This document shows positions 1,968 to 56,818 of a DNA stretch of 64,000 nucleotides, in pieces. Where the stretch lies: assembly GCA_028286585.1 (NCBI GenBank), contig JAQBRI010000009.1, positions 28,010 to 92,009 on the forward strand, in the 5' to 3' direction. The notes under the pieces were generated by a model. The model did not search any database. It was not told the origin of the DNA and saw only the letters and a list, made by a program, of their open reading frames with translations. Source of the stretch: Candidatus Kaiserbacteria bacterium. Lineage in GTDB: Bacteria; Patescibacteriota; Minisyncoccia; Phycocordibacterales; UBA2100. Position 1 is the first letter of the stretch, and each line of letters begins with the position of its first letter. The position numbers and the translations under genes were made by a program.

Positions 1968-1985
1968 TACATTTGCTTAACTGTA

Positions 1986-3432: not shown

Positions 3433-3444
3433 TTGTCATTATCA

Positions 3445-3931: not shown

Positions 3932-3937
3932 CTTACA

Positions 3938-3959: not shown

Positions 3960-3990
3960 GACTGTATTTCGAAATTACAAATGTAATACT

Positions 3991-4020: not shown

Positions 4021-4065
4021 ATAATTACTTATAACAAGTTTTATTAGTTTCTAAATAATGTTTTT

Positions 4066-4608: not shown

Positions 4609-4610
4609 TC

Positions 4611-5360: not shown

Positions 5361-5365
5361 GTATC

Positions 5366-41900: not shown

Positions 41901-44900
41901 GTAAACCCGCCTGAGTTTGATGTCACCGTGTACGTTGTGATTGCAGCACCACCGTTACTAACAGGCGGAGTAAATGTAATTGTTGCTTGGCCGTTACCTG
42001 CTGTAGCGACTGCTCCCGTAGGTGCATTTGGAACAGTTGCTGGTGTCACAGAATTGCTTAGTGTCGAGGAGGTACTTGTGCCAACGCCATTAGTTGCAGT
42101 AACGGTAAATGTGTATGCGGTGCCATTGGTAAGACCGGTCACAGTAAGTGGAGAACTGATACCAGTGACATTAAAGCCGCCAATGTTTGATGTGACCGTG
42201 TAGTTTGTAATCGCAGAACCGTTGTTACTTCCTGGTGTAAAGGTAATTGTTGCCTGACCATTTCCACCAACTGCAGTAACGCTTGTTGGAGCACTCGGGA
42301 CACCTGCCGGCGTGATTGAATTGCTTATTCCCGAAGATGTACTTGTTCCTGCAGAATTATTTGCAGTTACAGTAAACGCATAGACTACTCCGTTTGAGAG
42401 ACCGGTCACTGTGATTGGTGAAGAACCACCTGTTGCAGTAAAGCCTCCAACATTTGAAGTAACAGTGTACGTTGTGATTGCAGCACCGCCATTACTTACG
42501 GGTGGAGTAAACGAAATTGTTGCCTGCGTATCCCCTCGCACTGCTGTCACACTTGTCGGAGCATCTGGAATTGTTGCTGGAGTGACCGATGCGCTCGCAC
42601 TCGAACTAGCACTCGTTCCAACTGAGTTAGTAGCAGTTACTGTAAATGTATATGCCGTTCCGTTTGTTAAACCAGTTACCGTGATTGGTGAAGATCCGCC
42701 GGTTGCAGTAAAGCCACCTGTGTTTGAAGACACTGTATATGTTGTGATTGCAGCGCCACCGTTACTTACAGGCGGAGTAAAGGTTACGGTCACTTCTCCA
42801 TTGCCTCTCGTGACGGTTCCTATTGTCGGCGCGTTCGGAGTAGTAGCAGGAACAACCGTGTTACTCGTTGCCGATGCGGTACTTGTTCCTGCTGAGTTAG
42901 TTCCCGTTACGGTAAAGGTGTACGTTGTTCCATTTGTGAGACCAGTAATTGTAATTGGCGAAGATCCGCCGGTTGCAGTAAAGCCACCTGTGTTTGATGA
43001 GACCGTGTACGTTGTGATTGCAGATCCCCCATTACTTACAGGTGGTGTAAAGGAAACAGTTGCTTGACCATTTCCAGCGACTGCAGAAACGCTAGTTGGG
43101 GCACCCGGTGCAGTCGCCGGAGTTATTGTATTACTGGTGCCAGAATTTGTACTCGTACCGATTGCGTTTGTTTCGGTGACAGTAAATGTGTATGCCGTTC
43201 CGTTTGTTAAACCTGTTACAGTTATTGGTGAAGAGCCACCAGTTGCAGTGAAGCCGCCGGTGTTTGATGAGACTGTATAGATCGAAATACTTGAACCATT
43301 GTTATTGCCAGGTGTAAACGAAATTGTTGCTTGGCCATTTCCGGCAACTGCGGTTACGCTTGTTGGAGCACTCGGGACTCCCGCAGGTGTGATAGCATTA
43401 CTCGTACCAGAGGCGGTACTTGTTCCCGCCGAGTTAGTAGCAGTTACTGTAAAAGTATAAATCGTACCGTTGGTAAGACCGGTTATTGTAATCGGTGAAG
43501 ATCCACCAGTTGCTGTGAGGCCTCCCACATTTGATGAGACTGTGTATGTTGTTACAGCAGAGCCGCCGTTATTCACTGGCGGAGTAAACGATATGGTAGC
43601 CTGCGTGTCGCCGCGAACTGCGCTAACACTTGTCGGCGCGTCCGGTACTGTAGCTGGTGTCACCGAACTACTAGCACTCGAACTTGCGCTCGTTCCAACC
43701 GCATTTGTTGCGGTTACTGTAAACGTGTACGCTGTGCCATTCGTTAGACCTATTAGTGTTATTGGTGAAGAGCCGCCAGATGTTGTAAAGCCGCCTGTGT
43801 TTGATGAGACGGTGTAAAGAGTAATTGGTGAACCGCCTGTATTTCCTGGTGTAAAAGAAATGGTTACCTGCCCATTACCCGCCGTCCCTATTACACTAGT
43901 AGGTGCATCAGGAATTGTCGCCGGTGTCGCAGAATTTGTTGCGTTCGAGGCCGTACTCGTACCAACTGAGTTAGTAGCAGTTACTGTAAATGTGTATGCC
44001 GTTCCGTTTGTTAAACCTGTTACAGTTATTGGTGAACTACCACCTGTTGCAGTGAATCCTCCTGTGTTTGATGTAACGGTGTAGCCAGTTATTGCAGAAC
44101 CTCCGTTACTTACGGGTGGTGTAAATGTAATTGTTGCCTGAGTGTTACCACGTGTCGCGGTTCCTATAGTTGGTGCGTCTGGCACAGTTGCAGGAACCAC
44201 ACTATTACTTGTACTTGATGGAGTACTCGTTCCCAACGCACTACTTGCCGTCACTGTAAACGTGTACGTTGTTCCGTTCACAAGTCCAGTTATTGTAATT
44301 GGTGAAGAGCCACCTGTTGCAGTGAATCCCCCAGTGTTTGATGAGACCGTGTACGTTGTGATTGCAGATCCCCCATTACTTACTGGTGGTGTAAACGTAA
44401 TTGTTGCTTGGCCATTACCGCCGGTTGCAGTGACACTAGTTGGGGCACCCGGTGCAGTCGCCGGTATCACACTGTTACTAGCAATTGACGCAGTGCTTGT
44501 ACCAACGGCGTTCGTTGCCGTAACTGTAAACGAATAGGAAATTCCATTGGTAAGGCCGGTCACAACAATTGGTGAGCCACTTCCCGTTCCAGTAAAGCCG
44601 CCAACGTTTGAAGTAACCGTGTACGTTGTGATAGCAGAGCCGCCGTTATTCACTGGCGGAGTAAACGATACAGTAGCTTGAGTATCACCGCGAACTGCAC
44701 TCACGCCGGTTGGCGCACCTGGCACTGTTGCAGGAACAACACTATTACTCGTTCCCGAAGGAGAGCTTGTACCAGCGGAATTAGTAGCAGTTACCGTGAA
44801 TGTGTACGTTGTGCCATTAACAAGTCCGGTAATCGTAATCGGAGAACTTCCGCCGGTTGCGGTAAAACCGCCGGTGTTTGAAGACACTGTATATGTTGTG

Positions 44901-47900
44901 ATTGCAGTGCCACCATTACTGACTGGAGGAGTAAATGTGATTGTTGCTTGGCCGTTACCACGTGTTGCCGTTCCTATAGTTGGTGCACCAGGCGCTGTAG
45001 CTGGTGTTACTGCATTACTAGTACCCGAAGAAATACTGGTACCTGACGCGTTCGTTGCCGTTACTGTAAATGTGTACGTTGTTCCATTTGTGAGACCAGT
45101 AATTGTGATTGGTGAGCTGCCGCCGGTTGCGGTAAAACCGCCGGTGTTTGATGAGACAGTATAATTTGTAATTGGTGAGCCTCCCGAATTTACTGGAGGT
45201 GCAAAAGTAATAGTTGCTTGTCCATTTCCGGGAACTGCCGTAACACTCGTCGGCGCATTTGGTACCGTTTGATAATTTAAATATGCATAAGTAGTTCCCG
45301 GCGTAATCGCCCAAACTGGCGAAACAAAATCCCAGTTTGTATATGTCGCCTGGGTCTTCAATGCAGTAGTAGTTGTACCTGTCATTCCTGCCGGATCGGC
45401 ACCATTACCAACACCATTACTTTTGCCAGATGTAACGTTGTCCCAATAATCAGATACGTAAGATCCACCGATTGGATTTCCAACAATGCCTCCCACATAT
45501 TGAAGTGCCGCAGCACCAGTTGCTCCTGAGGCGCCCGCGGCGCCTCCTGTTCCTCCTGTTCCTGCAGCGCCTCCTGTTCCACCTGTTGCACCACTCGTTT
45601 TGGTGCCTGTCGGCACACCTGTTGCGTATGTATTTGTAATCACCGCATTATTACTTCCAAACAATCCTCCAGCATACGCGTTTCCGCCAGCACCTCCGGC
45701 GCCGCCTGTTGCACCCGTACCATTTACACCAGCCACTCCGCCTCCTGCTGCTCCGGCGTTTCCGCCAGCACCTCCTATCGCACCGGTTCCCGGAGTTCCG
45801 GCCGTAATAGTGACGTTTCCACGTGCGTAAGTATTTGTTATAACTCCCGTGTTCTGACCAACAAGTCCTCCGCCTGTCACATCACCTCCAACACCTCCTG
45901 TGCCGCCAGTTCCTCCAGTGGCTCCTGCACCACCGTTTCCAGATCCACCCGATCCACCAACGCCTCCGTTTCCGCCCTTTCCGCCGACCGCACCATTGCC
46001 TCCGTTGCCTCCTGTTATGCTTACGTTTCCGGATGAATAACTCGTATTAAAAGTTCCGGTCGCAAGATCTGCTCCCATAAGCCCGCCCGCAAATGATGCG
46101 CCGCCGGCACCACCATTTCCTCCTGCTACAGAAGCACCACCTGCGCCACCGGCAAGTGTTCCGCCTGCGCCACCTGTACTAACGGTACCCGAGAGTCCTG
46201 CGGAGGCACCAGCGCCACCAACAAGTGAGACATTTCCTGATGACCACGAAGAGAGCACAGTACTTCCCGAAGCGTTTTGTCCGACAAGTCCGCCAGCATA
46301 TGCTGCGCCTCCGGCGCCTCCCGCCGCAGTTGCACCCATTGCTCCGCCTATACCACCTGCGCCGGTTGGACCACCCGCGCCGCCGTTTCCTCCGACACCA
46401 CCTGCACCACCTACGCCGCCAGCAGAGCCGTTTACGTTCACGGCTCCAGTTCCATATGAAGTAGAAATCGTTCCGCCATTATTTTGTCCAACAAAACCAC
46501 CGCCATACGCGATACCTCCAACACCTCCTGCAGTACGTGCGCCAGCAATGCCGCCAGTTCCGCCAGTTCCCGCAACAATTCCTGCGCCGCCCGCCGCACC
46601 ATTTCCTCCCAATCCGCCAACGCCTCCTGCGCCGCCGGTTACCGTAACAGAACTGTTTGCATATGAATCTTTAATCGTTCGCCCAGTATTGTTATATCCA
46701 TTAAATCCACCCGCGTATGCAATACCTCCAACACCAGCCGCGCCCGCTGAACCGCCCGCGCCGCCTGTCGCACCATTTGCAGCCGTTGCGATTCCGCCGG
46801 CAACTCCAGCGCCGCCAGTTCCTCCAACACCTCCTGCACCAGCCGAACCCAAAACTGTTGTTGACGCGTAGGACCCCGAAAGCACGGTTCCATCATTAAA
46901 GCCAATGAGTCCGCCCGTATAAAGAACTCCTCCAGAAACTGCTGCGCCGCCTGCACCACCTGCACCACCAACTCCGGCTGCTCCAGGTAATCCTCCTATG
47001 CCTCCTGTACCACCGGACCCGCCGACTCCACTCGTGCCAGTAACAGATGCGCCAATTGCATAACTTGTTGCAATAGTATTAAGCGCATTCACGTTGTTAC
47101 CAATGAGTCCGCCCGAGTAGGACGCGCCACCAATTCCTCCAGCACCTCCTGTTCCGCCAGTGCCTCCAACATGTGCACTTGTTCCGAGACTTCCATCGCC
47201 GCCCGCGCCGCCTGTCGCACCAGTTGCACCGTTTTTAGCAATCGAAACAACACTACCTAATGCAAACGAATTTAAAACAACTCCGATTGCGGTATTGTGT
47301 GCAATGAGTCCTCCAACATATGCTGCACCTCCTGCTCCTCCTGCTCCTCCTGCTCCACCCGAGGCGGCAGTACTACCCGATACACTTCCAGAAGCACCTC
47401 CCGCAGCTCCCGCTCCCGGTGTTCCTGCAGTGCCACTCGTTGAAGTAGCATTTCCTGTCGCGTATGAATTTCCTTGAATCGTACCAAAGTTAAAAGCGAC
47501 AAGTCCGCCGGCATATGCTGCACCGCCCACGCCGGTAGCGCCACCCAAGCCGCCGGTTCCTCCGATTGATCCAGATCCACCGGCGCCACCAATCACTCCC
47601 GCCGCGCCATTACCGCTGGTGCCGCCATTTGCAATAACATTGTCAGTTGAATAACTTGAAGTAATGATGAGGTTGTTACTCGCGGTAGCACTGGTGCGCC
47701 CTACCAACCCACCGGCATATGCAGCACCGCCAGCTCCCGACGTACCTCCACCGCCCGTTGCAGCACCAACTGCCGCGGATCCGCTGGTGCCAGAGGCTCC
47801 TGCGCTTCCTCCATTTCCTCCTGTGCCACTTGTCGAGGTTACAATATTGCCTGTTGCATATGAAGTAAGAACGTTATTGGCCCCGGTTGTCGCACCAGTA

Positions 47901-50900
47901 AATCCAGCTAATCCTCCTGCGTTACCGTCGCCTCCTGCTCCGCCAATTCCGCCGGCACCTCCCGCGCCGCCAACAGAACTTGCTGCACCATTTGCACCAA
48001 CTCCTCCTGTGTTTCCAGTGCTTCCAATACCACCCGTTGCGGAAACTGCTCCCGTTGCATAACTATTCACTATATCGCTTTGTCCCCCTGTTGTAACAAA
48101 ATTCAATCCAATCAAGCCGCCGGCAAAACCCGAACCGCCGGCTGCAGCAAGCACAGCGCCACCGCCAGCACCTCCTGCAACTGTTGTTCTAGATGCGCCA
48201 CCATTTCCGGACGTTCCTGCTGTTCCCGCATTTCCGCCGGTTGAAGAAGCATTCCCAGTAGCATAATCAAAACTATAATTTACGATTCCAGAAGTAACAT
48301 TAGTGTACCCAACCAAACCACCTGCGTTACCATCGCCTCCGATACCTGCCGAACCGCCAAGTGCTCCTGCCGAACCTGCATGAGTTACGGTTCCGGTTGA
48401 ACCATCACCTCCCACACCACCTGCTCCACCAGTGCCTCCAGTTCCGCCGGTGACCGTAGCATTTCCCGTTGCATATGAATTAAGTATTTGTAATGTTTGT
48501 GTAGTTGCATTTATACGTCCAACGAGTCCTCCGCCATACGTCACACCACCTGCACCACCGGCACCTCCTGCACCACCTGCAGCTGCAATACCACTTGCAA
48601 TTGTGCTACCACTCGTGCCTCCTGCTCCTCCCACTCCTCCCGTTCCTCCAGTACCTCCCGTGACTGAAAAAGAAATCGAGGAGTACGAATTATTCTGAAT
48701 TGTTCCAAGGTTATCACCAACAAGTCCACCATAACTACGAGCGCTTCCGGCGCCTCCTGCACCTCCTGCAGTTCCTGTACCTCCGGCAAAGGCGCCTACT
48801 CCAGTTCCGCCCGCACCGCCAATTCCGCCGGTTCCTGCCGTTTGCTCAGTTCCCGAAATCGCGATCGTATCAGAATACGATGTTGTAATAATTCCGGCAG
48901 CACTATTAAATCCCGCAAGACCTCCAACAAATGTACCGCCGCCCGCGCCTCCTACGCCTCCAACTCCGCCGGCACCTCCTGCACTTCCAGCTGCAAGTCC
49001 CGAGCCTCCAGCACCGCCATTTGCACCATTTCCCATTGCACCGCCCGCGACACTAATATTTCCTTTTCCAGATCCGGCATCAACACTTGCATACGACGCA
49101 ATAATTTCGGATGCGTTATTTCCTACAAGTCCACCGACATGAATCAAACTGGACGCGCCACCGGCTCCGCCTGCTGATCCCGCTGCACCACCACCCGCCG
49201 CTCCGCTTCTTCCAGCGGTTCCGTTTTGTCCTGCACCCCCAGTCACATTGAGTGCAGTCTTTGAATACGAAGTCTGAATAACTCCGATCGAATATCCCAC
49301 AAGACCACCGACATATACGCCGCCGCCAGCACCTCCTGCACCACCTGCGCCTGCAATACCATAAAGCGCTGTTCCTGTTCCAACTCCGCCCGCGCCGCCC
49401 TGCGCGCTTGCTCCGCCGGCACTCCCTGTCACGGTAACGGTTCCCGTTTGTGAGTATGAATTAGTAATTGTTCCAACAAAGTTTTGTCCAACGAGTCCGC
49501 CGGCCTGCAGTGCACCAGCAACGAGTCCGCCGCCAGCACCTCCGGCACCGCCCACTCCGCCAGTACCACCTAAGTGGTTGGTCGCGAGTGTTCCATCGCC
49601 GCCCGCACCACCGACACCTCCTGCACCACCTGACCCACCAGTTGCATTCACATCGGATGTTGCATATGAATTATTTATAATTCCAGCAACGGTATTGTTT
49701 CTTCCTACCAAACCGCCTACGTTAACTGCTCCGGCCACACCGCCAGAAGCACCTGCGCCGCCCGCTGCTGCTGTGCCAGCTGAAATATTTCCCGAAGCTC
49801 CTGCAGTACCTCCAGCGCCCGCGGCACCACCGGCACCAGAAAAAGCACTTACTGCTCCTGTTGTATGAAAACTGCTTTGAATTGTGGTTGGACTGTCTCC
49901 CACCAAACCTCCCGTATAGTTAACTCCTCCACCTCCACCGACTGCTCCATTACCACCAGCACCCCCAAGAGACGCGGACCCTCCTGCACCACCGGCACCA
50001 CCAGAGCCCGATGCTCCACCTGCTCCCGATGTTCCTCGGATAATTCCTGTTGAACTTGATGTCGCAATATTTCCTCCAGAAGCTGCTGCTGCTGCGACAA
50101 GGCCACCTGCGTAGGATGCGCCGCCCAATCCAGCAGCTCCACCAGTTGCACCCGCTCCTCCCGCCGAGGCTGTACCGCCAGCACCTCCGGCGCCGCCATT
50201 TCCTGCAGCACCGCCCACTCCGGCAAGGACAGTCACGTTACCTGATGTAAATGAATTTCCAATAAAAACGTTTGTGTTTGTAAATCCAAGGAGTCCACCT
50301 CCGTTTGCAAATCCTCCTGCGCCTCCAATTCCTCCTACTGCTCCCGCGCCGCCCGTTATAGAATTTGTTACCCCGCTTCCGCCCGCGCCACCTACTGCAC
50401 CTGCACCGCCCGCTCCGCCCGTTACTGTTATGTTTCCTGAAGCGCGAGAATTATTTATCGACTGTCCAGTTCCCGAGTTAAATCCTTCGAGTCCGCCTGC
50501 GTATGCACCAAAGTTAAGTGCTCCGCCGCCTCCGCCCGCGCCACCAGTTCCACCGACTGCTCCATTTGTACCGGCAACTGCCGCACCGCCCGCACCACCG
50601 CTGCCTTCTGTAATAGTGACATCGTCGGATGATGACAATGATTCAATAATCACATCTGCAAGCGAATTGAGTCCGATAGCTCCGCCACTATAGATTGGTC
50701 CGGCAACACCACCCGCGCCTCCGGTTCCACCAGTTCCATTTCTTCCACTTCCCGATCCGCCCGCGCCGCCAGTTCCGCCAGTTCCCCCAACACCACCCGA
50801 ACCGCCAAGAGTTACAGTAATTGTTCCTCCACTACTTGAAGAGGAGGCAATATTTCCATTACCTTGTCCTGCGAGACCGCCAATATATACCACGCCACCT

Positions 50901-53900
50901 CCGCCGCCGGTACCTCCAGTTCCTGCTACTCCGCCTGCATGCCCTCCTGTTCCCAATGTTCCGTCTCCGCCATTTCCACCTGCGCCTCCCGTTCCGCCAC
51001 TTCTTCCGCTTGCGGTAAGACTACCAATAACGATGTCATTAATAAGGACTCCTGAGTTATCGCCAACAAGTCCACCGATGTATTCGGCACCGCCAACTCC
51101 ACCGATACCTCCGGTCCCTCCCGTTGCACCGGTGCCTCCGGCAATATTTCCCGAAGCACCAGCGGCACCTCCCGCTCCCGCGCCACCCGCGGCTCCTCCC
51201 ACAACACTAATAGAAGTAATTGTGTATGTTACGTCTCGAATGATTCCAGTATTGAAACCCATGATGCCTCCGCCCGCAGCAAGTCCGCCGGTACCACCGG
51301 CACCTCCTGCGCCGCCCGCTCCACCAATTGCTCCGGCTGTACTGCCGCCGGCACCACCCACTCCACCTGTGACGCCAGTACCTCCGGCACCTCCCGTTGA
51401 AGAAATAGTTCCAGTAGTATTTGGAAGACTGATTGTTGTTCCTAGGACACTATCGTTACCAATCACTCCTCCTGCGTATGACGCACCACCGACTCCTCCT
51501 GCACCTGATGTAATTCCCGCAGCTCCTGCAACACCAGCGCCCGATGTTCCAGGAGTTCCGGCAAGTCCACCATTTCCCGCAGCTCCGCCAAGAGCAACAG
51601 CATTGCCCGCAGCATATGAATCAGGACTTACGACCGCTGCATTAAATCCAACAAGGCCGCCCGCAGCGGCAAGTCCTCCGGCTTCGCCACTCAATCCGGC
51701 GACACCTCCCGTTGTACCAGCCGATCCGCCGGCAAACGCACCCGAAGAATTTCCTCCGTTTCCGGTTGTCGCTCCCGCCGCTCCTACTCCACCGGTTGCA
51801 AGTGCGTTACCTGATGCGTGCGAACCATTTTGAATTATTCCGTTTGTCGTATTAAAACCGACGAGTCCGCCCGCGTACGCAAGACCTGCGGCGTTTGATG
51901 CTGCAGCACTAGCCGAAGTATTTCCTCCAGCGCCGCCTGTTGTACCAGCTCCACCATTTCCTCCGCTGCCGCCGGCACCTCCCGCCCCGCCCGTCGCTGA
52001 GGCATTGCCTGTTGCGTACGAACCATTAATTACTCCACTACTATTTCCCGCGAGTCCTCCTGCGTACGCTGCCTTACCCAAAGCAACAGCAGCGCCTGCG
52101 CCGCCCGCAGCACCAGTGCCTCCGACACCTCCGTTACCACCGCTTCCAGTTACACCCGCGGTTGAAGTTGCGTTAATAGTCGCGTGTGATCCCAAAATGA
52201 CACCGCTTGTTGAATTGTTTGCGACGAGTCCGCCGGCGTATGCAAACCCGCCAAGCGAAACACTTGTTCCGCCAACTCCACCAACTCCGCCCAAAGCACC
52301 ACTTCCACCTGTGCCCCCTGCTCCACCATTTGCGCCTATTCCACTTGCTCCACCTTGTGAGATTACAGAACCGGATTCTATATATGCATTTATTATTGTC
52401 GAAGTATTCAAGCCGACGAGACCACCAGCAAACGAGTCCCCACCCGCGCCAGCAGTTCCCCCTGTTGCACCCACCGCACCAACATGTGATGACCCTCCTG
52501 CTGATCCGTTTCCAGCAACACCCGCTGCTCCACCATTTTTTCCAGTTGATCCGGTTGCAACAATACTTCCGGACGCGTATGAATTTATTATTTCGTTTAA
52601 GTTGTTACCCACGAGTCCGCCCGCGTATGCAATAGCACCAGCGCCACCGTTTCCGCCAAGTCCACCTGCTGCTGCAGTACCCGAGTTAAACGTTGCAGTT
52701 GTAGCGCCTCCCGCACCACCTGCACCAGCATTTCCTGGCGTGCCTCCTACAGATGTGACATTGCCCGTTGAGTATGAAGTGGTTCGAATGATACCGCCGT
52801 TTTGTCCGACAAGACCTCCAGCCGTACTGATACCACCCGCGCCACCGTTGCCTCCGGTCGCTCCAACTCCACCAATCGCATTTGTTCCGCCGGTGCCTCC
52901 TGCACCACCCACTCCGCCAATGCCACCAGTTCCTCCGGTTACTGTCGTGCTACCGACCGCATAACTTGTAGTGACTGTTCCCAATGAAATGATACCAACG
53001 AGTCCTCCACCAAATGCGGCACCTCCTGCACCTCCCGTTCCACCCAATGCTCCAGCTCCACCTGTTGTACTTGCTGCTCCAGTTCCACCGGCACCTCCTG
53101 CACCTCCAATTCCGCCCGTGCCTCCAAGAGAATTAACGGTGCCCGTTGCGTAGGAAGTTAAAATTTCTCCAGTCGTCAAAAATCCAACCAAGCCTCCAAC
53201 ATACGCAATACCTCCGACAGCTCCTGTTCCTCCGGTAATGCCGGCCAAACTTGTACCACCCGCGCCACCTGCTGCTGCAGCACCGCCCGCGCCTGCTGTG
53301 CCGCTCACGTTCCCTGTTGAAAAATCATTGGTCAATGTTGATCCAGTGTTGTTTCCTACAAATCCGCCCGCATACACAATACCCCCCGCTGTTGCGGTAC
53401 CCGCAGCTCCGGCAAGTGCACCGGTGCCGCCCGCACCCCCTGCTCCTGCTGCACCTCCTGCGCCCGCAACACCTGTAACTGATCCAATAGTGTAATTACT
53501 ATCAGTAATTGTGAGTGCATTATTTCCAGCAAGTCCTCCAACATACAGAATTGCACCTGCTCCTCCAATACCACCCGCAAGACCGGCGAGTCCGGTGAGT
53601 CCTGTAACTCCGTTTGCTCCGGCACCTCCTGCGCCGCCGGTTCCATTTACAATATTTTGTGCACTCGATGTTTGAATGATTCCTGTATTACTTCCCACGA
53701 GTCCGCCGGCATATGTTGAAAGCACGTTTGCAGATCCGCCGGTGCCCGATGCACCGCCCGCACCTGACGTTCCACTTGAACCTTTGGTACCGCCCGCGCC
53801 TCCCGTGCCGCCAACTCCACCCGTGCCGCCAACAACAGTCACTAATCCAGTATTTGAAAAAGATGAAATAATTATTCCCGAGTTAAGACCAACAAGTCCT

Positions 53901-56818
53901 CCCGAATATGCTGCGCCTCCTGCGCCGCCTGCTGCTCCTCCTCCGCCTGTTCCTCCTATGTGTGCAGTTCCAAGAGATGCGTCACCTCCAGTTCCACCAA
54001 CTTGTCCAACTTTTCCCGTTGACCCAGTTGCAGTAACGGCGCCTGTCGCAAAGACCGCTGTTGTCGTACCAGTAATAATACCGCCAAGGTTATTTTGTCC
54101 AACGAGTCCGCCCGCATATGCTATAGCACCTGCTCCACCTACTCCGCCTGCACCACCAGTTGCTGCAGTGAGCGTAGTTGCAACAGCAGAAGCGCCGGCA
54201 GTTGCGCCAGCCGAACCATTGCCCGGTGTTCCTCCGGTTGATTGCACGACGCCTGTTGCGTTACTGCCCGTTTGAATTATTCCCAAGTTGTTTCCGACAA
54301 GTCCTCCGACATACGAAACACCGCCGGCTCCACCTGTGCCGCCGGCGCCTCCTGCTCCACCAATTGCAGCACCGCCTCCAGCACCACCTACGCCCGCAGT
54401 GCCGGCTGCTCCGCCCAATCCGCCGGTTCCGGTTACTGTTCCTGTTGCGGTAACAGAAGTCAGGATTCCTGCATTCACCCATCCGGCAAGGCCACCAACA
54501 TAATCAATACCTCCCGCTGCTGCAAGACCAACAGCTCCGCCTGCGCCTCCAATACCTGTTCCAGCATTAGCACCTCCGGCACCACTATTTCCAGAAGCAC
54601 CTCCTGCGCCTCCCGTTCCTATAACATTTACACCACTCGTTGCAGCTGTAATATTTCCTTGTTGAGAATAACCAACGACTCCACCAACGTAGACTGTTCC
54701 TCCCAATGCTGCCGCATTCGAAACACTTGCTCCGCCCGCGCCTGCCGTAGTCGCGCCGCTCGTTGTGTTTCCGCCTGCTGCCGCATTACCTGCTGCGCCT
54801 CCTGCACCTCCTACACCTGTTACATTTCCAGAAACACTTACGTTTGAAATCGTACCAATGTTGTATCCGACCAGTCCTCCCACATACATAGTTGCTGCAG
54901 CAGTTCCTGCCGTACCGGTTCCTCCAGCAGTTGGTGTCGTACCTGCAGTTCCAGCAGTTCCAGCGGTACCGGCAACACCCGCCGTACTTGTTGCACTAAT
55001 CAACTCGCCCGAGAGAATAACGTTTTTGATAGTGTTGTTAGAAAAACCAAAAAGACCAACATAGTTGAGCGTTGTCGTACTTATAAAAAGATTACTGATG
55101 GTAAAGTTTGCACCATCAAAGATTCCACTAAAGTTGGTTGTGTTATCGCCTATCGGCACAAAGCCTGCACCCAAGTTCCATCCCGATGTTACCGTCGCAT
55201 TAATATTATTATTAAGTTTGTATGAGTTGGTAAGTCCGGTTCGAATACCCTGCAAACCATATACGTCGTACGTAATAAAAGGATCGGTACTCACGCCAAT
55301 GCCGGTATATCGTCTAAAGGTTCCCGCTGTTACCGAAAAGTTTCCCGTCGCAGCAAATGTATTGGTGCCGGGATTGTTTGCAACAAAAGTTGCGGCTGAT
55401 GATTGCACATAATTTCCCGACAAACCTCCAGCGTTCGAAATCGTAAGACTCGCATTTTGTGTAATGGTACCAGTGTAGCCGGCGATCGTGAGCGATCCAA
55501 TAGTAAAAGCAGTATCAATGTTTGATGCGTTTGATCCTGTATCAAATATCACATCGGTGTTTACATCAGGAGTAGAAGCACCGGACGCGCCGTTAGATGT
55601 TGCCGACCAGCTTCCGGTCGAGCTCCACAAAGCGCCCGAAGCACCAACCCAGTATCGTGTCGTCGGGTCGACGACATAATCAATATCAACATTTCCAATA
55701 ATCTTAAGATCAAACTCGTCGGTCGGAGTTTGAAGATTGGTCAAAAGAATACGGTACTTTCCATCATGATCAATTGCATCAAACGTGCCGACAAGTACAC
55801 CATCAAGTGTGTACACTTCTACGCGCACCGATGCACCATCGTGTGACCGAGCATACAACGTAATGTCTTTTGTATTGTCGAGCAGCTGTGCAAACGTAAC
55901 GCGCACAAACTGTCCGTCAGAAATATTTGCATACTGCTGGTCTTGCGATTGCAAGAGTGGATACACATCGCCAATTGTATTTTTGTTTGCATCAAGTTGC
56001 AGTGCCTTCGAAATATAAATAATGGTAAATGTCTGAGTCGACAAGTGCGGCACGATCCACGCAACATGATCTATGTATCCGTTACCATCGTCATCAAACG
56101 ATTGAAACTCCATAACTTGATTTGCATTGTTCTGCCAATTTATTTTTATCTGATCTTCTTGACCAACCTTAAATATTTCTGGAATAGCAGTTCGCACCGG
56201 TACGTTCAAGATTGGTGTTATTTCATTTTCAAGATCCGCGACAGATACGACAACTGTCTTGCCATTGTCGTTTGTGTGTTCGGTGATCGTAGGCACCTGC
56301 ACCAGAATCGGTAACGCAAGATCCGAAGTCGATGCAGTATTTTGTGAATTTAAAAAAGTATCAGTCGACGTTGCTGTCAAAATTGCAGCACCACCTGAAC
56401 TAGTAAAAATATTTTGCACAGAACTCGATGCGCTGGTGTTATCAGAAATTATTTCTGTCGAAGATGCTTGAGTAAATGAAGTATCAGTTGAAGTTGCAAT
56501 ACTACTGCTCGCATTAATTACTTCACTTTGTAAACTATCGGTAGAAGTCGTTGCGGGGGGCTGTATTTTAGCATCACCCGAATCCTGTGAAACTTGGCTT
56601 CCCTGCCCAACCTGGTCGTCGGAGCTGGTAGCGACTGGCGCAGGAGTAGTCGCATCCTCTGTTGAAGTTACGATTACAGTATTTGTATCAGTGACAATTG
56701 GCGTTGCATCATCAGCATGCGTCGATACAACGTTTCCAAATAATATTCCAAGTACAAAAAAAACCCCTACAACAATTTGTAGCGGTAATCGGAATATTCT
56801 AAAAAATGGCTCAATCAC
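38993..56818 (-). CDS. giant (5,941 aa) secreted/surface fibre protein: signal-anchor, S/T-rich stalk, beta-helix-like head, ~50 GLUG-like Gly/Ala-rich repeats, 21 FN3 repeats, Ig-like module, poly-Gly linker, C-terminal dockerin-like module
   Basis: A single uninterrupted 17,826-nt ORF with a GTG start at 56818, the only start-type codon that retains the hydrophobic N-terminus 'FRLPLQIVVGVFFVLGILFGNVVSTHA'. The domain layout was read from the translation (see the sub-features). Confidence 0.9.
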   Translation of the reverse strand: MIEPFFRIFRLPLQIVVGVFFVLGILFGNVVSTHADDATPIVTDTNTVIVTSTEDATTPAPVATSSDDQVGQGSQVSQDSGDAKIQPPATTSTDSLQSEVINASSSIATSTDTSFTQASSTEIISDNTSASSSVQNIFTSSGGAAILTATSTDTFLNSQNTASTSDLALPILVQVPTITEHTNDNGKTVVVSVADLENEITPILNVPVRTAIPEIFKVGQEDQIKINWQNNANQVMEFQSFDDDGNGYIDHVAWIVPHLSTQTFTIIYISKALQLDANKNTIGDVYPLLQSQDQQYANISDGQFVRVTFAQLLDNTKDITLYARSHDGASVRVEVYTLDGVLVGTFDAIDHDGKYRILLTNLQTPTDEFDLKIIGNVDIDYVVDPTTRYWVGASGALWSSTGSWSATSNGASGASTPDVNTDVIFDTGSNASNIDTAFTIGSLTIAGYTGTITQNASLTISNAGGLSGNYVQSSAATFVANNPGTNTFAATGNFSVTAGTFRRYTGIGVSTDPFITYDVYGLQGIRTGLTNSYKLNNNINATVTSGWNLGAGFVPIGDNTTNFSGIFDGANFTISNLFISTTTLNYVGLFGFSNNTIKNVILSGELISATSTAGVAGTAGTAGTAGTTPTAGGTGTAGTAAATMYVGGLVGYNIGTISNVSVSGNVTGVGGAGGAAGNAAAGGNTTSGATTAGAGGASVSNAAALGGTVYVGGVVGYSQQGNITAATSGVNVIGTGGAGGASGNSGAGGANAGTGIGGAGGAVGLAAAGGIDYVGGLAGWVNAGILTSVTATGTVTGTGGLGGAAGTAGVGGAGGGAAIGGAGGAGGTGGAGGVSYVGGLVGNNLGIIQTGSNATGVVQSTGGTPGNGSAGATAGASAVATTLTAATGGAGGVGGAGAIAYAGGLVGQNNLGGIITGTTTAVFATGAVTATGSTGKVGQVGGTGGDASLGTAHIGGTGGGGAAGGAGGAAYSGGLVGLNSGIIISSFSNTGLVTVVGGTGGVGGTGGAGGTKGSSGTSGAGGASGTGGSANVLSTYAGGLVGSNTGIIQTSSAQNIVNGTGGAGGAGANGVTGLTGLAGLAGGIGGAGAILYVGGLAGNNALTITDSNYTIGSVTGVAGAGGAAGAGGAGGTGALAGAAGTATAGGIVYAGGFVGNNTGSTLTNDFSTGNVSGTAGAGGAAAAGGAGGTSLAGITGGTGAVGGIAYVGGLVGFLTTGEILTSYATGTVNSLGGTGGIGGAGGAGGTGAASTTGGAGALGGTGGAGGAAFGGGLVGIISLGTVTTSYAVGSTTVTGGTGGIGGVGGAGGTGGTNAIGGVGATGGNGGAGGISTAGGLVGQNGGIIRTTSYSTGNVTSVGGTPGNAGAGGAGGATTATFNSGTAAAGGLGGNGGAGAIAYAGGLVGNNLNEIINSYASGSIVATGSTGKNGGAAGVAGNGSAGGSSHVGAVGATGGTAGAGGDSFAGGLVGLNTSTIINAYIESGSVISQGGASGIGANGGAGGTGGSGALGGVGGVGGTSVSLGGFAYAGGLVANNSTSGVILGSHATINATSTAGVTGSGGNGGVGGTGAAGGAGAAVALGKAAYAGGLAGNSSGVINGSYATGNASATGGAGGAGGSGGNGGAGTTGGAGGNTSASAAASNAAGLAYAGGLVGFNTTNGIIQNGSHASGNALATGGVGAAGATTGNGGNSSGAFAGGSAGTTGGVAGLSGEAGGLAAAGGLVGFNAAVVSPDSYAAGNAVALGGAAGNGGLAGTPGTSGAGVAGAAGITSGAGGVGGASYAGGVIGNDSVLGTTISLPNTTGTISSTGGAGGTGVTGGVGGAGGSTAGAIGGAGGAGGAGGTGGLAAGGGIMGFNTGIIRDVTYTITSISVVGGAAGGAGAGGAAGASGNIAGGTGATGGTGGIGGVGGAEYIGGLVGDNSGVLINDIVIGSLTASGRSGGTGGAGGNGGDGTLGTGGHAGGVAGTGGTGGGGGVVYIGGLAGQGNGNIASSSSSGGTITVTLGGSGGVGGTGGTGGAGGSGSGRNGTGGTGGAGGVAGPIYSGGAIGLNSLADVIIESLSSSDDVTITEGSGGAGGAAVAGTNGAVGGTGGAGGGGGALNFGAYAGGLEGFNSGTGQSINNSRASGNITVTGGAGGAGAVGGAGGSGVTNSITGGAGAVGGIGGAGGFANGGGLLGFTNTNVFIGNSFTSGNVTVLAGVGGAAGNGGAGGAGGTASAGGAGATGGAAGLGGASYAGGLVAAAAASGGNIATSSSTGIIRGTSGAGGASGSGGAGGAGGSASLGGAGGNGAVGGGGGVNYTGGLVGDSPTTIQSSFHTTGAVSAFSGAGGAAGAGGTAGASGNISAGTAAAGGAGASGGVAGAVNVGGLVGRNNTVAGIINNSYATSDVNATGGSGGAGGVGGAGGDGTLATNHLGGTGGVGGAGGAGGGLVAGALQAGGLVGQNFVGTITNSYSQTGTVTVTGSAGGASAQGGAGGVGTGTALYGIAGAGGAGGAGGGVYVGGLVGYSIGVIQTSYSKTALNVTGGAGQNGTAGRSGAAGGGAAGSAGGAGGASSLIHVGGLVGNNASEIIASYASVDAGSGKGNISVAGGAMGNGANGGAGGSGLAAGSAGGAGGVGGVGGAGGGTFVGGLAGFNSAAGIITTSYSDTIAISGTEQTAGTGGIGGAGGTGVGAFAGGTGTAGGAGGAGSARSYGGLVGDNLGTIQNNSYSSISFSVTGGTGGTGGVGGAGGTSGSTIASGIAAAGGAGGAGGAGGVTYGGGLVGRINATTQTLQILNSYATGNATVTGGTGGTGGAGGVGGDGSTGTVTHAGSAGALGGSAGIGGDGNAGGLVGYTNVTSGIVNYSFDYATGNASSTGGNAGTAGTSGNGGASRTTVAGGAGGGAVLAAAGGSGFAGGLIGLNFVTTGGQSDIVNSYATGAVSATGGIGSTGNTGGVGANGAASSVGGAGGAGGIGGAGGDGNAGGLAGFTGATTGANNVLTSYATGNIVTSTSGTGGNGGSAGASGTSGSAAVGAATGGGGTSGAGGAAYAGGLVGRTSATASNNLIITSSYSTDNVIANGGTSGNGAAGVIGGAGGSGSIGGTGGLGGATGVGGAAYAGGLVAFNFGTIQGNSYATGNATSTSGTAGTPGAGAAGGASGSVSGSTAASGGAGGAGGAGGAAYVGGLIAHNTAIGVVLNSFALGSVVSIAKNGATGATGGAGGDGSLGTSAHVGGTGGTGGAGGIGGASYSGGLIGNNVNALNTIATSYAIGASVTGTSGVGGSGGTGGIGGLPGAAGVGGAGGAGGAAVSGGVLYTGGLIGFNDGTVLSGSYASTTVLGSAGAGGVGGTGGAGVAGGIATAANGATGGAGGSAGAAGVGGIAYAGGFNGYNNTGRTIKDSYANSSVTVTGGAGGVGGLGGNGAAGGAGIVAGTGGTGGIAGARTAGGVGGIAYGGGFVGQNNGGTISTSYGTGAVNVNGSAGGVGGAGGVGGNGGAGGPTGAGGIGGAMGATAAGGAGGAAYAGGLVGQNASGSTVLSSWSSGNVSLVGGAGASAGLSGTVSTGGAGGTLAGGAGGASVAGGNGGAGGASFAGGLMGADLATGTFNTSYSSGNVSITGGNGGNGAVGGKGGNGGVGGSGGSGNGGAGATGGTGGTGGVGGDVTGGGLVGQNTGVITNTYARGNVTITAGTPGTGAIGGAGGNAGAAGGGVAGVNGTGATGGAGGAGGNAYAGGLFGSNNAVITNTYATGVPTGTKTSGATGGTGGAAGTGGTGGAAGASGATGAAALQYVGGIVGNPIGGSYVSDYWDNVTSGKSNGVGNGADPAGMTGTTTTALKTQATYTNWDFVSPVWAITPGTTYAYLNYQTVPNAPTSVTAVPGNGQATITFAPPVNSGGSPITNYTVSSNTGGFTATGGSSPITITGLTNGTTYTFTVTATNASGTSISSGTSNAVTPATAPGAPTIGTATRGNGQATITFTPPVSNGGTAITTYTVSSNTGGFTATGGSSPITITGLVNGTTYTFTVTATNSAGTSSPSGTSNSVVPATVPGAPTGVSAVRGDTQATVSFTPPVNNGGSAITTYTVTSNVGGFTGTGSGSPIVVTGLTNGISYSFTVTATNAVGTSTASIASNSVIPATAPGAPTSVTATGGNGQATITFTPPVSNGGSAITTYTVSSNTGGFTATGGSSPITITGLVNGTTYTFTVTASSALGTSTPSSTSNSVVPATVPDAPTIGTATRGNTQATITFTPPVSNGGSAITGYTVTSNTGGFTATGGSSPITVTGLTNGTAYTFTVTATNSVGTSTASNATNSATPATIPDAPTSVIGTAGNGQVTISFTPGNTGGSPITLYTVSSNTGGFTTSGGSSPITLIGLTNGTAYTFTVTATNAVGTSASSSASSSVTPATVPDAPTSVSAVRGDTQATISFTPPVNNGGSAVTTYTVSSNVGGLTATGGSSPITITGLTNGTIYTFTVTATNSAGTSTASGTSNAITPAGVPSAPTSVTAVAGNGQATISFTPGNNNGSSISIYTVSSNTGGFTATGGSSPITVTGLTNGTAYTFTVTETNAIGTSTNSGTSNTITPATAPGAPTSVSAVAGNGQATVSFTPPVSNGGSAITTYTVSSNTGGFTATGGSSPITITGLTNGTTYTFTVTGTNSAGTSTASATSNTVVPATTPNAPTIGTVTRGNGEVTVTFTPPVSNGGAAITTYTVSSNTGGFTATGGSSPITVTGLTNGTAYTFTVTATNSVGTSASSSASASVTPATIPDAPTSVTAVRGDTQATISFTPPVSNGGAAITTYTVTSNVGGFTATGGSSPITVTGLSNGVVYAFTVTANNSAGTSTSSGISNSITPAGVPSAPTSVTAVGGNGQATITFTPGSNNGSAITNYTVTSNIGGFNVTGISSPLTVTGLTNGTAYTFTVTATNGVGTSTSSTLSNSVTPATVPNAPTGAVATAGNGQATITFTPPVSNGGAAITTYTVTSNSGGFTASGSGSPITVTGLTNGTAYTFTVTATNGVGTSTSSTLSNSVTPATAPGAPTSVSAVAGNGQATITFTPPVSNGGSAITNYTVSSNTGGFTATGGGSPITITGLTNGTTYTFTVTASNNVGTSTASSASNSVTPVTVPNAPTAVTAVSGNGQATVSFTPGSNNGSAITNYTVSSNTGGFTASGGSSPITITGLTNGTTYTFTVTATNAVGTSTPSGTSNTVVPATTPNAPTSVTAVSGNGQATITFTPPVNNGGAAVTSYTVTSSSGGLTATGGSSPITVTGLTNGTTYTFTVTATNAAGTSTASSASNSVIPGTVPNSPTGISAVGGNGQATITFTPPVSNGGAAITNYTVSSNTGGFTATGGSSPITITGLTNGTTYTFTVTATNSIGTSTSSGTSNSVTPATVPDAPTSISAVAGNGQATVSFTPPVSNGGAAITNYTVSSNTGGFTATGGSSPITITGLVNGTTYTFTVTATNNVGTSTSSGTSNSVVPAGGPSAPTSVAAVGGDGTATITFSPPSFTGGSAITSYTVTSNIGNFTATGGSSPITVTGLTNGTAYTFTVTATNAIGTSISSAATNSVTPATVPDAPTNLAAAIADSSVNLTWSAPGFNGGSPITSYTVTSNGGVFSTTTNGTSATIQGLTNGTTYTFTVTATNAVGTSTSSGTSNAATPASVPGAPINLAAIVQDSSINLSWSAPISNGGSPVTDYVVEYKLSSGGTWSIFSDGISTTPTTMVTSLSNNNSYDFRISAKNLVGRGTTTIPVSATPGAPAQVLIQSFSGLTVPSIATAVRITNEGSIAYEYQYTWCVTDSATNSCGGGDDIFSSTAAKLIQPGANFDTTLSSTVPVIGTYWFHVAVQYGSASSSASQSFTAIAAPVQNPGNGGGGGGGGGGGGGGGDNSPPVATPAATTEVIGDINGDGKVNGIDFSILLAYWKTKPPFKNNKVDLNHDGKVDSVDFSILLYHWKK
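38996..39160 (-). other. dockerin-like module (two F-hand Ca-binding segments) at the C-terminus of the giant protein
   Basis: 'GDINGDGKVNGIDFSILLAYW' and 'VDLNHDGKVDSVDFSILLYHW' each fit D-x-N-x-D-G-x-[VI]-[ND]-x-x-D followed by an amphipathic helix, the duplicated dockerin signature. Confidence 0.7.
39206..39250 (-). repeat. 15-residue poly-glycine linker coding tract
   Basis: The + strand reads tcc tcc gcc tcc ccc acc tcc tcc acc tcc gcc acc gcc acc tcc, which is 15 consecutive Gly codons (GGA/GGC/GGG/GGT mixed) on the minus strand. The context is P-G-N-G15-D-N-S-P. Confidence 0.95.
39590..45265 (-). repeat. array of 21 tandem FN3-like repeats (~90 aa / 270 nt each)
   Basis: Counted from the translation. 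The consensus is 'P[GDN]APT.V.A..GNGQATI.FTPP..NGG.AIT.YTV.SNTGGFTATGGSSPIT[IV]TGL.NGT.YTFTVTATN..GTS..S..SN.V.PA'. The last two or three units are more divergent ('LSWSAP...YDFRISAKN'). Confidence 0.9.
41772..42145 (-). repeat. 104-nt perfect direct repeat pair (41772-41875 and 42042-42145), exactly one FN3 unit (270 nt) apart
   Basis: Checked base by base: ggtgtcacagaattgcttagtgtcgaggaggtacttgtgccaacgccattagttgcagtaacggtaaatgtgtatgcggtgccattggtaagaccggtcacagt occurs twice. Confidence 0.95.
45440..55066 (-). repeat. array of ~49-50 GLUG-motif-like repeats (~65 aa) with Gly/Ala-rich spacers
   Basis: I counted recurring units of the form '[AVS]Y[VA]GGLVG.N.G.I..SY[AS]TG.V...GG.GG' followed by spacers such as 'AGGAGGTGGAGG'. 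The first is 'NYVGLFGFSNNTIKN' and the last is 'QYVGGIVGNPIGGSYVSDYW'. Confidence 0.7.

Follow-up and report, generated by a model that had tools for sequence, protein, structure and literature searches.

What fold and what role can be assigned to a block of some 3,200 residues in which GLUG-like repeats alternate with Gly/Ala-rich spacers? The question is raised by a giant open reading frame in the window, i.e., the whole 64,000-nt stretch of DNA analyzed here. This ORF is present in NCBI nr, within a MAG labelled Candidatus Kaiserbacteria where the adjoining genes carry JWO50_7xx locus tags. We consider that the block is probably a hyper-expanded GLUG helix of 50 rungs with a polyglycine-II fin, and that it would serve as the outer blade in an adhesin of the fibrillar surface type.

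Domain organization of the giant protein

The features of the giant gene are collected in Table 1. The FN3 array matches Pfam fn3 at 8.4e-179 in 21 stretches, and appears in Tandem Repeats Finder as a 270-nt repeat of 17.5 copies. The dockerin matches PF00404 at 8.2e-11 (42.4 bits against a cutoff of 22.9), and none of the 10 neighboring ORFs scanned encodes a cohesin partner. The N-terminal region (aa 197-510) has no family match in Pfam or NCBIfam, and the Pfam scan gave none for the C-terminal region; aa 381-510 are modelled by AlphaFold2 (AF2) with low confidence. Comparison with an ortholog (L002, 62% identity) showed that its N-terminus is the equivalent of the putative signal peptide, and that the Thr/Ser-rich linker is fast-evolving, with 29% identity and 16% gap columns.

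Table 1. Features of the giant gene, with positions in the protein and in the window
Feature	Protein (aa)	Window	Strand	Remarks
Giant ORF		38993..56818	(-)	5,941 aa, GTG start
Putative Sec-type signal peptide	1-35	56714..56818	(-)	Hydrophobic helix, then STHA-DD, seen in translation
Thr/Ser-rich low-complexity linker	36-196	56231..56713	(-)	
N-terminal region	197-510	55289..56230	(-)	64% identity with ortholog
GLUG N-cap	511-586	55061..55288	(-)	...YDVYGLQ...YKLNNNINA...W..GAGFVPIG...F.G.FDG....ISNL...
50 GLUG rungs	587-3800	45419..55060	(-)	Core of ~28 aa, arm 1, turn, arm 2
Atypical first spacer		54891..54972	(-)	AGVAGTAGTAGTAGTTPTAGG...; tandem repeat (27 nt, x3) in place of a GGX tract
Example unit	1206-1268	53015..53203	(-)	YVGGLVGFLTTGEILTSYATGTVNSL, then GGTGGIGGAGGAGGTG-AASTT-GGAGALGGTGGAGGAA; opens AF2 model 1
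GLUG C-cap	3801-3850	45269..45418	(-)	...TTTALKTQATYTNWDFVSPVWAITPGTTYAYLNYQ
FN3 array	3851-5740	39599..45268	(-)	~21 domains of 89-90 aa
C-terminal region	5741-5862	39233..39598	(-)	Leads into 15-Gly tract
15-Gly tract	5857-5871	39206-39250	(-)	
Type I dockerin	5888-5935	39014..39157	(-)	DINGDGKVN...DLNHDGKVD

Anatomy of the repeat units

Using [YF]xGGLVG as an anchor, we counted 50 units with a period of 56-72 aa (median 65), in agreement with the ~49-50 units of the first-pass annotation. The consensus of the 50 cores, GxxYxGGLVGxNxxGxIxxSYAxGxVxxTGG, contains both the aromatic-G-G-L-V-G strand and the 'N.G.I..SY[AS]TG.V' strand pair described there, and the spacer quoted as an example, GGAGGAAGNAAAGGNTTSGATTAGAGG, is located in unit 1. 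The interval originally assigned to the repeats, 45440-55066 (aa 585-3793), holds for the repeat block itself, but the structural limits of the module are slightly wider, with the N-cap starting at ~aa 511 (window 55288) and the C-cap ending at ~aa 3850 (window 45269).

Each rung carries a GGX hairpin of 30-44 aa placed at the same turn, and this spacer consists of two arms, the first of (GGX)5-6 and the second of (GGX)5, with a variable turn of 0-13 aa between them. The register of arm 1 is GG-x repeated five or six times, counting forward from the end of the core, and that of arm 2 is GG-x repeated five times, counting backwards from the following core. In the arms, Gly reaches a frequency of 0.6-1.0 at G positions and stays at or below ~0.1 at most X positions. 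In two adjacent arms per unit, Gly recurs at each third residue through several turns in a row, which is the sequence pattern of polyglycine-II. The block as a whole is 35% Gly and 17% Ala, its Gly autocorrelation has a period of 3 (0.33 at lag 3, 0.28 at lag 6 and 0.27 at lag 9), and we counted in it 171 GGxGG motifs as well as 44 runs of three or more GGX triplets, i.e., triplet tracts of the PGRS type, with X positions occupied mainly by Ala (67), Thr (36) and Val (25).

At the nucleotide level the units are ~61% identical on average (70% at most) and the block is invisible to Tandem Repeats Finder, which does detect the FN3 array, so that the divergence of these repeats, unlike FN3, is as first described. 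Two further early observations were reproduced: the ORFs on the opposite strand are Pro-rich (34-36% Pro), and GC content is raised, at 56.5% in the block vs 43.7% outside the gene. A multi-unit super-repeat is unsupported, the unit-similarity profile giving weak bumps at lags 1, 8, 19 and 23. The suggestion that the block might bind Ca did not hold for RTX-type sites, as the block has only 7 GGxGxD motifs over 3,129 aa; given this count and the 31 Asp in the block, we rejected an RTX-type Ca-binding roll. A collagen-like triple helix was likewise rejected, since the GGX tracts are of 15-17 residues, lie between beta strands and do not form a long uninterrupted Gly-X-Y run.

GLUG identity and limits of the module

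The GLUG-like identity proposed from the sequence was borne out by the HMM search: isolated cores score 27.5 and 25.8 bits against PF07581 (Glug), where the gathering cutoff is 20.5, and 18 of the 50 cores match this family at E<=0.01 (best, 2e-7), with no second family matched. The whole 3,209-aa block gave no match in one Pfam scan, probably because of composition-bias filters, and three segments compared with NCBIfam (the N-terminal region, four units of the block and the C-cap region) were equally without a match. A homology search with 407 aa of the block, in which Gly-rich candidates predominated, yielded only 3 fragments. The N-cap shares 38% identity with GLUG modules of Margulisiibacteriota (L003; E 3e-31) and also matches proteins bearing PF07581, and the motif of the C-cap closes every canonical module in L003 and P0021-P0029. 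Since these standard caps flank all 50 turns, the GLUG block is one single module. When PDB sequences were searched, the concatenated cores gave no match, the N-cap gave a chance match only, and the core profile matched the IgA1 protease alone, marginally (E ~0.7).

Conservation across orthologs

The ortholog contains the same 50 units, which correspond one-to-one with those of the giant protein, consistent with the first-pass view of an old and selectively maintained array. Unit lengths are correlated between the two proteins (r=0.89), and 25 of 49 are the same. Spacer identity is 0.64, the same as that of the cores and the N-terminal domain, and far from the 0.29 of the T/S linker. Identity is inflated in Gly/Ala-rich sequence because of composition, an effect addressed by a control with non-orthologous pairs, where the spacer score is 0.441 vs 0.625 for orthologous spacers. 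Within the arms, 85-92% of Gly residues are kept and 40-44% of X positions are identical, and gaps make up 0.1-0.4% of the arms vs 2.2% of the turn. Together, these sequence comparisons show purifying selection on both the glycines and the length of the spacers. A third, colinear homologue retains the ~195-nt period; unit numbers across the orthologs so far are 50, 50 and ~62. Synteny between the window and the locus of the ortholog is essentially absent beyond the giant gene; a metagenome scan returned one short irrelevant locus, and a viral scan returned no match.

Predicted structure of rungs and spacers

Structure prediction, proposed at the outset as a test for a beta-solenoid, gave two confident AF2 models, with pLDDT of 93 in one and 85-98 over the ordered part of the other, the alignment behind model 1 being built largely from the protein's own paralogous units. 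The modelled fold is a right-handed beta-helix that can be superposed on solved GLUG domains, and the N-cap, modelled at pLDDT 89-98, aligns with 3n6z. The cap and all cores can be fitted rigidly onto a structure with consecutive rungs, which implies that the cores stack consecutively and that the spacers are excursions from the helix. For example, in the unit at aa 1206-1268 the core is modelled as 4 short strands, and the spacer has pLDDT values of 96-98, with 86 at the turn. Spacers are modelled at 96-98 in both models, dipping only at the mid-spacer turn, and DSSP assigns them neither helix nor strand class, i.e., they are predicted as ordered, non-alpha/non-beta segments; in model 2, some core strands continue beyond the core into the first residues of the spacer. 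The models confidently predict an uninterrupted beta-helix whose spacers are ordered rather than disordered.

The best Foldseek PDB matches of the spacers are 7jjv (prob 0.98, E 5e-3), 3bog and 2pne, all of them polyproline-II (PPII) bundles of springtail antifreeze proteins, and all weak, with TM of 0.2-0.45. From these matches, the DSSP strings and the pLDDT profile, we infer that the arms would adopt polyglycine-II geometry; the same model features suggest that arms may pack against one another into a continuous fin.

Proposed architecture and alternative readings

In the architecture that we favor, the block would be a single right-handed parallel beta-helix of 50 rungs, held between a standard GLUG N-cap and C-cap, with the ~28-aa cores stacked directly as in solved GLUG domains. 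Such a rod would be ~24 nm long, because each rung adds 4.8 A. At the same turn of each rung the chain would leave the helix, run outwards as (GGX)5-6, pass through a short variable loop and return as (GGX)5. The two arms may be polyglycine-II helices of ~15-17 residues (~5 nm), and 49 successive hairpins packed side by side could build an unbroken polyglycine-II sheet of two layers, a 'fin' running the length of the rod, with glycines facing inward, Ala, Thr and Val on the faces and ~49 variable loops along the outer edge. The protein would then consist of a signal peptide, a T/S linker, the N-terminal region, the finned rod, 21 FN3 domains, poly-Gly and a dockerin. In this layout the dockerin would anchor the protein at its cell-proximal end, with the FN3 array as the stalk and the finned rod as the distal, rigid, multivalent binding blade of a surface adhesin of the CPR (Patescibacteria); both the orientation on the cell and adhesion by the finned rod are presumed from this order of domains. 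More tentatively, and with somewhat less confidence than doubt, we suggest a composite solenoid in which the 24-nm GLUG helix would template, one rung after another, an unbroken two-layer polyglycine-II sheet of ~98 helices, ~24 x 5 nm in size; the solenoid would be the blade with which the surface fibre of a CPR episymbiont contacts its host.

The same repeats could also be read as cores, in a GLUG helix or as separate beta units, joined by spacers that are disordered loops or 'entropic bristles', which might provide modification sites or a brush with a steric or anti-adhesive effect, in which case AF2 would have hallucinated the order in the spacers. Their low complexity and 35% Gly would suit this reading, Gly-rich tracts being commonly taken as disordered, as would the weakness of the Foldseek matches to PPII bundles and the fact that the polyglycine-II sandwiches predicted by AF2 for PGRS domains are without experimental structures (PMC9436101). 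However, the spacers evolve like the folded parts of the protein and unlike the T/S linker, their arms are nearly without indels and unit lengths are conserved, Gly is kept in triplets that stay strictly in phase with the flanking strands, and pLDDT is high in two independent models, so that we regard disorder as quite unlikely. An ordered spacer of another kind, i.e., extra irregular solenoid coils or a silk-like cross-beta layer within a wider or multi-coil solenoid, we hold to be unlikely; it would be in keeping with the proposal that Gly/Ala-rich repeats of the fibroin heavy chain form beta-solenoids (PMC11217467), and with the core strands, some of which extend into the spacer start in model 2.

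The remaining readings concern function. Beta-helices can be catalytic, as in pectate-lyase-fold proteins and tailspikes, and the block might be a polysaccharide lyase, hydrolase or depolymerase, or might belong to a protease, on the model of IgA1 proteases. This is very unlikely, since no peptidase, lyase or glycoside hydrolase family was detected across the 5,941 aa (by Pfam, and by NCBIfam on parts), the near-uniform rungs are without the irregular loops and acidic clusters of active-site grooves, and acidic residues are few in the block (31 Asp, 10 Glu over 3,129 aa). An IgA-protease-like enzyme was rejected because the peptidase domain is absent, and the GLUG helix of IgA1 proteases is not known to be the catalytic domain. 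Ice binding is the reading to which we give least weight, as highly improbable: here, Ala/Thr-decorated polyglycine-II faces would bind ice or another periodic surface, making the protein an ice-binding adhesin akin to MpIBP in logic and to springtail antifreeze proteins in fold. The best structural matches of the spacers and the predominance of Ala and Thr at X positions fit this idea, but the match concerns fold type only, and both PGRS domains and phage gp38 use GGX with small X residues and have no link to ice.

Rarity and significance

To place the finned helix among GLUG proteins, we compared rung lengths across high-scoring GLUG proteins and found 25-34 aa in 144 of 153, vs a median of 65 aa here. 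Among the best 150 matches from 1.84 billion representative proteins, rungs of ~65 aa with GGX throughout occur only in this lineage, which agrees with the initial assessment of the combination and copy number as extreme. We found no description in the literature of a GLUG helix with an ordered Gly-rich hairpin on every turn.

Polyglycine-II bundles are a rare and lately recognised architecture, and the large PE_PGRS domains have proved hard to study by experiment. With dozens of GGX hairpins fixed in register, a soluble beta-helix could offer a natural and tractable scaffold on which to study or engineer polyglycine-II sheets, and a finned helix would widen the repertoire of solenoid folds. 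If the composite solenoid is real, it would far exceed every known polyglycine-II assembly in size, and ~49 variable loops would line its free edge. The giant gene spans ~18 kb, a large share of a CPR genome of an assumed ~1 Mb, and the fact that it is conserved unit for unit speaks for its importance, plausibly in host-cell attachment. Since a whole-protein Pfam scan is blank over 3,200 residues, such proteins are invisible to routine annotation.

Comparison with known systems

Canonical GLUG modules (PF07581), e.g., the N-terminal helix of streptococcal and Gemella IgA1 proteases (7uvk, 7jgj) and BACOVA_03286 (3n6z), comprise ~4-10 rungs, each 25-34 aa long, and the whole module often recurs within a protein, whereas the giant protein has a single module of 50 rungs with a GGX hairpin inserted in every rung.

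The PGRS domains of PE_PGRS proteins are predicted polyglycine-II sandwiches with up to 54 helices in Wag22 (PMC9436101). Like the GLUG block, they combine GGA/GGX tracts, predicted two-layer polyglycine-II 'sails' with regular and irregular loop edges, GC-rich coding bias and surface exposure. As a description, the term 'PGRS-style' used in the first-pass annotation thus suits these GGX spacers, which are predicted to be ordered and polyglycine-II-like, but it does not extend to family membership: the giant protein has no PE domain (no Pfam match in aa 1-584) and no ESX secretion context, and PGRS proteins are absent from the significant matches listed in protein searches limited by composition filters and candidate caps. 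In addition, PGRS sandwiches stand alone, while each hairpin of the giant protein would be rooted in a beta-helix rung, and the register of the ~98 helices would therefore be fixed.

A beta-helix and a polyglycine-II sandwich are also found in one protein in the T4/S16-type phage tail-fibre adhesin gp38 (PDB 6F45), where conserved Gly-rich motifs alternate with variable loops at the edge of the sandwich, and these loops bind receptors (PMC12032242). However, gp38 is small, with helix and sandwich as separate consecutive domains and 4 loops, whereas in the giant protein every rung would contribute to both, over 3,200 aa and with ~49 loops; homology was not detected. Springtail antifreeze proteins (sfAFP 2pne/3bog, GrAFP 7jjv) are compact two-layer Gly-rich PPII bundles, like the predicted spacers, and this likeness is of fold type only: they are small, free-standing and eukaryotic, with 6-13 helices of ~9-10 residues vs ~15-17 in the arms described here.

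In overall layout, the giant protein resembles the fibrillar surface adhesins of Gram-positive bacteria and the giant surface proteins of CPR and Omnitrophota, which likewise have a signal peptide, a stalk of Ig/FN3-type domains, a distal functional region and an anchor, and are encoded by very large genes in small genomes. It differs in its anchor, which is a type I dockerin where fibrillar adhesins have an LPXTG motif or a transmembrane segment, and in its distal region, which would be the finned GLUG helix.

A single GLUG module of 50 rungs

Using the [YF]xGGLVG motif as an anchor, we counted 50 units in the giant protein, extending from aa 587 to aa 3800 with a period of 56-72 aa (median 65). 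This agrees with the ~49-50 units claimed by the first-pass annotation, whose interval translates to aa 585-3793. The core consensus derived from all 50 units, GxxYxGGLVGxNxxGxIxxSYAxGxVxxTGG, contains both the aromatic-GGLVG and the SYATG-type strands described there, and the remainder of each unit is rich in Gly/Ala/Thr, as also described: Gly makes up 35% and Ala 17% of the block, which contains 171 GGxGG motifs and has a Gly autocorrelation of period 3 (0.33, 0.28, 0.27 and 0.16 at lags 3, 6, 9 and 12). The units were said to be diverged in nucleotides, unlike part of the FN3 block, and they are (mean identity 61%, maximum 70%); Tandem Repeats Finder does not pick up the block but does detect the FN3 array (270 nt x 17.5 copies, 69% matches). 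The higher GC content (56.5% in the block vs 43.7% outside the giant gene) and the Pro-rich opposite-strand ORFs were likewise confirmed, these ORFs being 199-319 aa long, with three of the four containing 34-36% Pro and the fourth Ser/Cys-rich.

With positions numbered backwards from the next core's aromatic residue, arm 2 of the spacer has Gly at a frequency of 0.58-0.83 at positions -16/-15, -13/-12, -10/-9, -7/-6 and -4/-3, and Ala, Thr or Val (Gly 0.08-0.19) at -14, -11, -8 and -5. Arm 1, numbered forward from the core end, follows that GG-x register over five to six triplets, and the turn between the arms is variable (about 0-13 aa). These position-specific registers demonstrate that each spacer consists of two 15-17-residue GGX tracts, with the register fixed to the adjoining beta strand. 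At the level of sequence, two such tracts and a turn are the signature of a polyglycine-II helix hairpin. The first spacer is a (G/A)-T-A type tract, not GGX, and its coding sequence is a tandem repeat (27 nt x3). A check for calcium-binding motifs, as proposed in the first-pass annotation, was negative for the RTX type: GGxGxD occurs just 7 times in the block, excluding an RTX-type calcium roll.

Scanned against Pfam in one piece, the 3,209-aa block gave no match, which is probably a filter artefact of extreme composition, because isolated pieces and cores do match. Short pieces score 27.5 and 25.8 bits against PF07581 (Glug; gathering score 20.5), and 18 of the 50 cores, scanned singly, match Glug at E<=0.01 (best 2e-7) and no other family, bearing out the proposed GLUG identity. 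When genomes were scanned with the N-terminal part of the giant protein, one of the two relatives recovered was L003, from Margulisiibacteriota (38% identity, E 3e-31, across 223 aa), which shows the canonical GLUG design several times over, i.e., an N-cap (FRRYTG...YDIYGLQ...YKLNNNI...W...GF.PIG...F.G.F.GN...I.NL...IGLFG), then four to six rungs, each about 25-35 aa long, then a C-cap (...tF.gWDF..iW.I.e..sYPyl.W). Both caps recur in the giant protein, the N-cap at aa about 511-586 and the C-cap at aa 3801-3850, and N-cap homologues in the protein database bear PF07581. With a single pair of caps enclosing all 50 rungs, the block reads as one GLUG module, not fifty. It belongs to the GLUG family by profile, fold and caps, and departs from it in rung length only, which is the novelty. 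In the Margulisiibacteriota protein, the GLUG modules are separated by W..G..NW...W segments like those of aa 381-510.

Features of the giant protein and its neighbouring genes
Feature	Nucleotides	Strand	Order in giant protein	Remarks
Giant ORF, 5,941 aa	38993..56818	minus		contains whole block
Signal peptide (...STHA/DD)			1	aa 1-35
T/S-rich linker			2	after signal peptide
N-terminal region			3	without known family
Segment WVGASGALWSSTGSWS...	55289-55678	minus		aa 381-510, directly before N-cap
GLUG rod with proposed fin			4
First spacer	54891-54972	minus
FN3 domains, about 21			5	Pfam 8.4e-179
Region of about 120 aa			6	without assignment
15-Gly tract	39206-39250	minus	7	aa 5857-5871, directly before dockerin
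Type I dockerin			8	C-terminal; 8.2e-11
Gene with weak Ig-like matches	38105-38974	minus		directly downstream of giant gene
Gene with weak Ig-like matches	36619-38154	minus		directly downstream; 50-nt mutual overlap
MarR-family winged-helix regulator	56954-57439	minus		immediately upstream of giant gene
Helicase-peptidase fusion, 668 aa	60629-62635	minus
AbiEii-like nucleotidyltransferase part	63077-63985	minus		next gene after fusion

Predicted structure of rungs and spacers

An AlphaFold2 model of four units and a terminal core (model 1, aa 1206-1489), built on a 14-row alignment (A3) that combines two metagenomic fragments with paralogous windows free of overlap, has a mean pLDDT of 93.1 and a pTM of 0.86. 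The five cores of 28 aa (140 residues) form four short strands each. The spacers contain no DSSP helix or strand and are nevertheless ordered (pLDDT 96-98), with dips to 66-87 only mid-spacer, coinciding with the variable turn. The beta-solenoid for which a test was suggested earlier is supported by prediction. A Foldseek search ranks springtail antifreeze proteins first, i.e., 7jjv (prob 0.98, E 5e-3), 3bog and 2pne, which are bundles of Gly-rich polyproline-II helices. An independent model of the N-cap and units 0-4 (model 2, aa 381-862; a different alignment, A4, of 28 rows) has pLDDT 85-98 from aa 511 on and <50 for aa 381-510. The first, non-GGX spacer is still modelled at pLDDT >90. The cap and all five cores fit rigidly on a crystal structure with consecutive rungs, which means that core follows directly on core in the stack and that the helix is continuous, with the spacers necessarily leaving it as excursions. 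In our view the block is very likely a GLUG beta-helix whose insertions are ordered and conserved, and from the models we infer that these insertions adopt a polyglycine-II geometry.

Conservation of the array in homologues

The same genome scan identified an ortholog (L002; 62% identity) in a MAG bearing the label Candidatus Saccharibacteria. Over the 3,954 aa up to the end of the locus, its 50 units correspond one-to-one, in order, to those of the giant protein. Unit lengths are correlated (r=0.89), identical in 25 of 49 cases and different by 1.06 aa on average. Identity is 0.625 in cores, 0.640 in spacers, 0.636 in the N-terminal domain and 0.287 in the Thr/Ser-rich linker. Orthologous pairs are more similar than non-orthologous ones (0.625 vs 0.441 for spacers, 0.615 vs 0.393 for cores), and the positional ortholog is the best match for 32 of 48 spacers and 31 of 48 cores. 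Arm glycines are retained at 85-92%, identity is 40-44% at the X positions of the arms and 54% at non-Gly core positions, and gapped positions make up 0.1-0.4% of the arms and 2.2% of the turn. Read from this alignment, arm length and glycines are constrained and the outward-facing residues vary, a pattern predicted by a packed polyglycine-II sheet and not by a disordered linker.

A third colinear homologue (L005; GCA_037975565.1, JBBCBH010003404.1, 2820-21176) keeps the ~195-nt period over about 62 units, and frequent frame changes break its gene into >30 small ORFs as called, reflecting either a pseudogene or long-read assembly error. Unit comparison along the array showed no clear super-repeat, which together with the colinear homologues argues that the array is old and not homogenised, in line with the earlier suggestion that it is old and maintained. 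The MAG labels of the window (Candidatus Kaiserbacteria, NCBI) and of its unit-for-unit ortholog differ, and synteny around the giant gene is essentially absent between the two.

Rarity among GLUG proteins

A four-unit profile searched against 1.84 billion representative proteins gave 8,914 matches at E<=1e-3, of which 81 reach E<=1e-30, the top matches being giant proteins built of many canonical GLUG modules. We screened rung spacing in the best 150 of these 8,914 matches and 20 earlier ones; 153 had at least 5 anchors, and 144 of these, of various lengths, have a spacing of 25-34 aa. Dense GGxGG with long rungs was found in the giant protein (64.5 aa), its ortholog (65 aa, in the 3,954 aa read), and two fragments, P0002 (308 aa; 57 aa) and P0003 (307 aa; 63 aa). 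Among the best 150 of 8,914 matches, the all-rung, 50-fold version thus appears confined to the lineage of the giant protein, consistent with the claim that combination and copy number are extreme. Two further proteins carry sporadic inserts at the same rung turn, of about 34 aa (GGX) in three consecutive rungs of P0041 (aa ~600-800) and of 20-25 aa (Gly/Tyr/Asp) in about eight rungs of P0042 (aa ~1450-1950). This site is therefore a recurrent insertion hot spot, which suggests a possible route to the all-rung version.

Neighbouring genes and proposed role

Neighbouring proteins in NCBI nr carry JWO50 locus tags and lie on a 95-kb contig of a MAG labelled Candidatus Kaiserbacteria (CPR/Patescibacteria). 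The two genes downstream of the giant gene have weak Ig-like matches (Big_13, DUF7743), no cohesin was detected in either, and they may encode co-expressed surface partners. The MarR-family protein is a possible regulator of the giant gene. The fusion joins a Schlafen-group-3-like helicase (PF09848, 4e-67) to a C-terminal S24 LexA-like peptidase (PF00717, 4e-20), and with the AbiEii-like gene looks like a defence or toxin-antitoxin-type pair.

Family-profile scans detected no catalytic domain in the giant protein. In sfAFP-type bundles the distance between packed polyglycine-II helices is about 4.5-5 A, and since the rung rise of 4.8 A is close to it, successive hairpins could form a continuous two-layer polyglycine-II sheet, or fin. 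The 15-Gly tract is presumably a flexible hinge. By analogy with fibrillar adhesins, we propose that the dockerin serves as the anchor at the cell and the 21 FN3 domains as a stalk, which at an assumed length of about 3.5 nm per domain would measure about 70 nm; binding would be the task of the rod and its fin at the distal end. We consider this specific fin, together with the adhesin reading, somewhat probable.

Comparison with known systems

The reviews of Gly-rich PPII bundles that were consulted contain no example interleaved with a beta-helix, and a full-text phrase search for "GLUG motif" gave just two mentions, both in passing. By composition and by predicted fold, PGRS domains come nearest (PMC9436101, PMC13243192); the likeness is one of mechanism and fold type, and the block is not a PE_PGRS member. 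The nearest experimentally supported logic is that of phage gp38, which has a polyglycine-II sandwich after its beta-helix; in this sandwich, hypervariable loops that bind the receptor are held by conserved Gly-rich motifs (PMC12032242).
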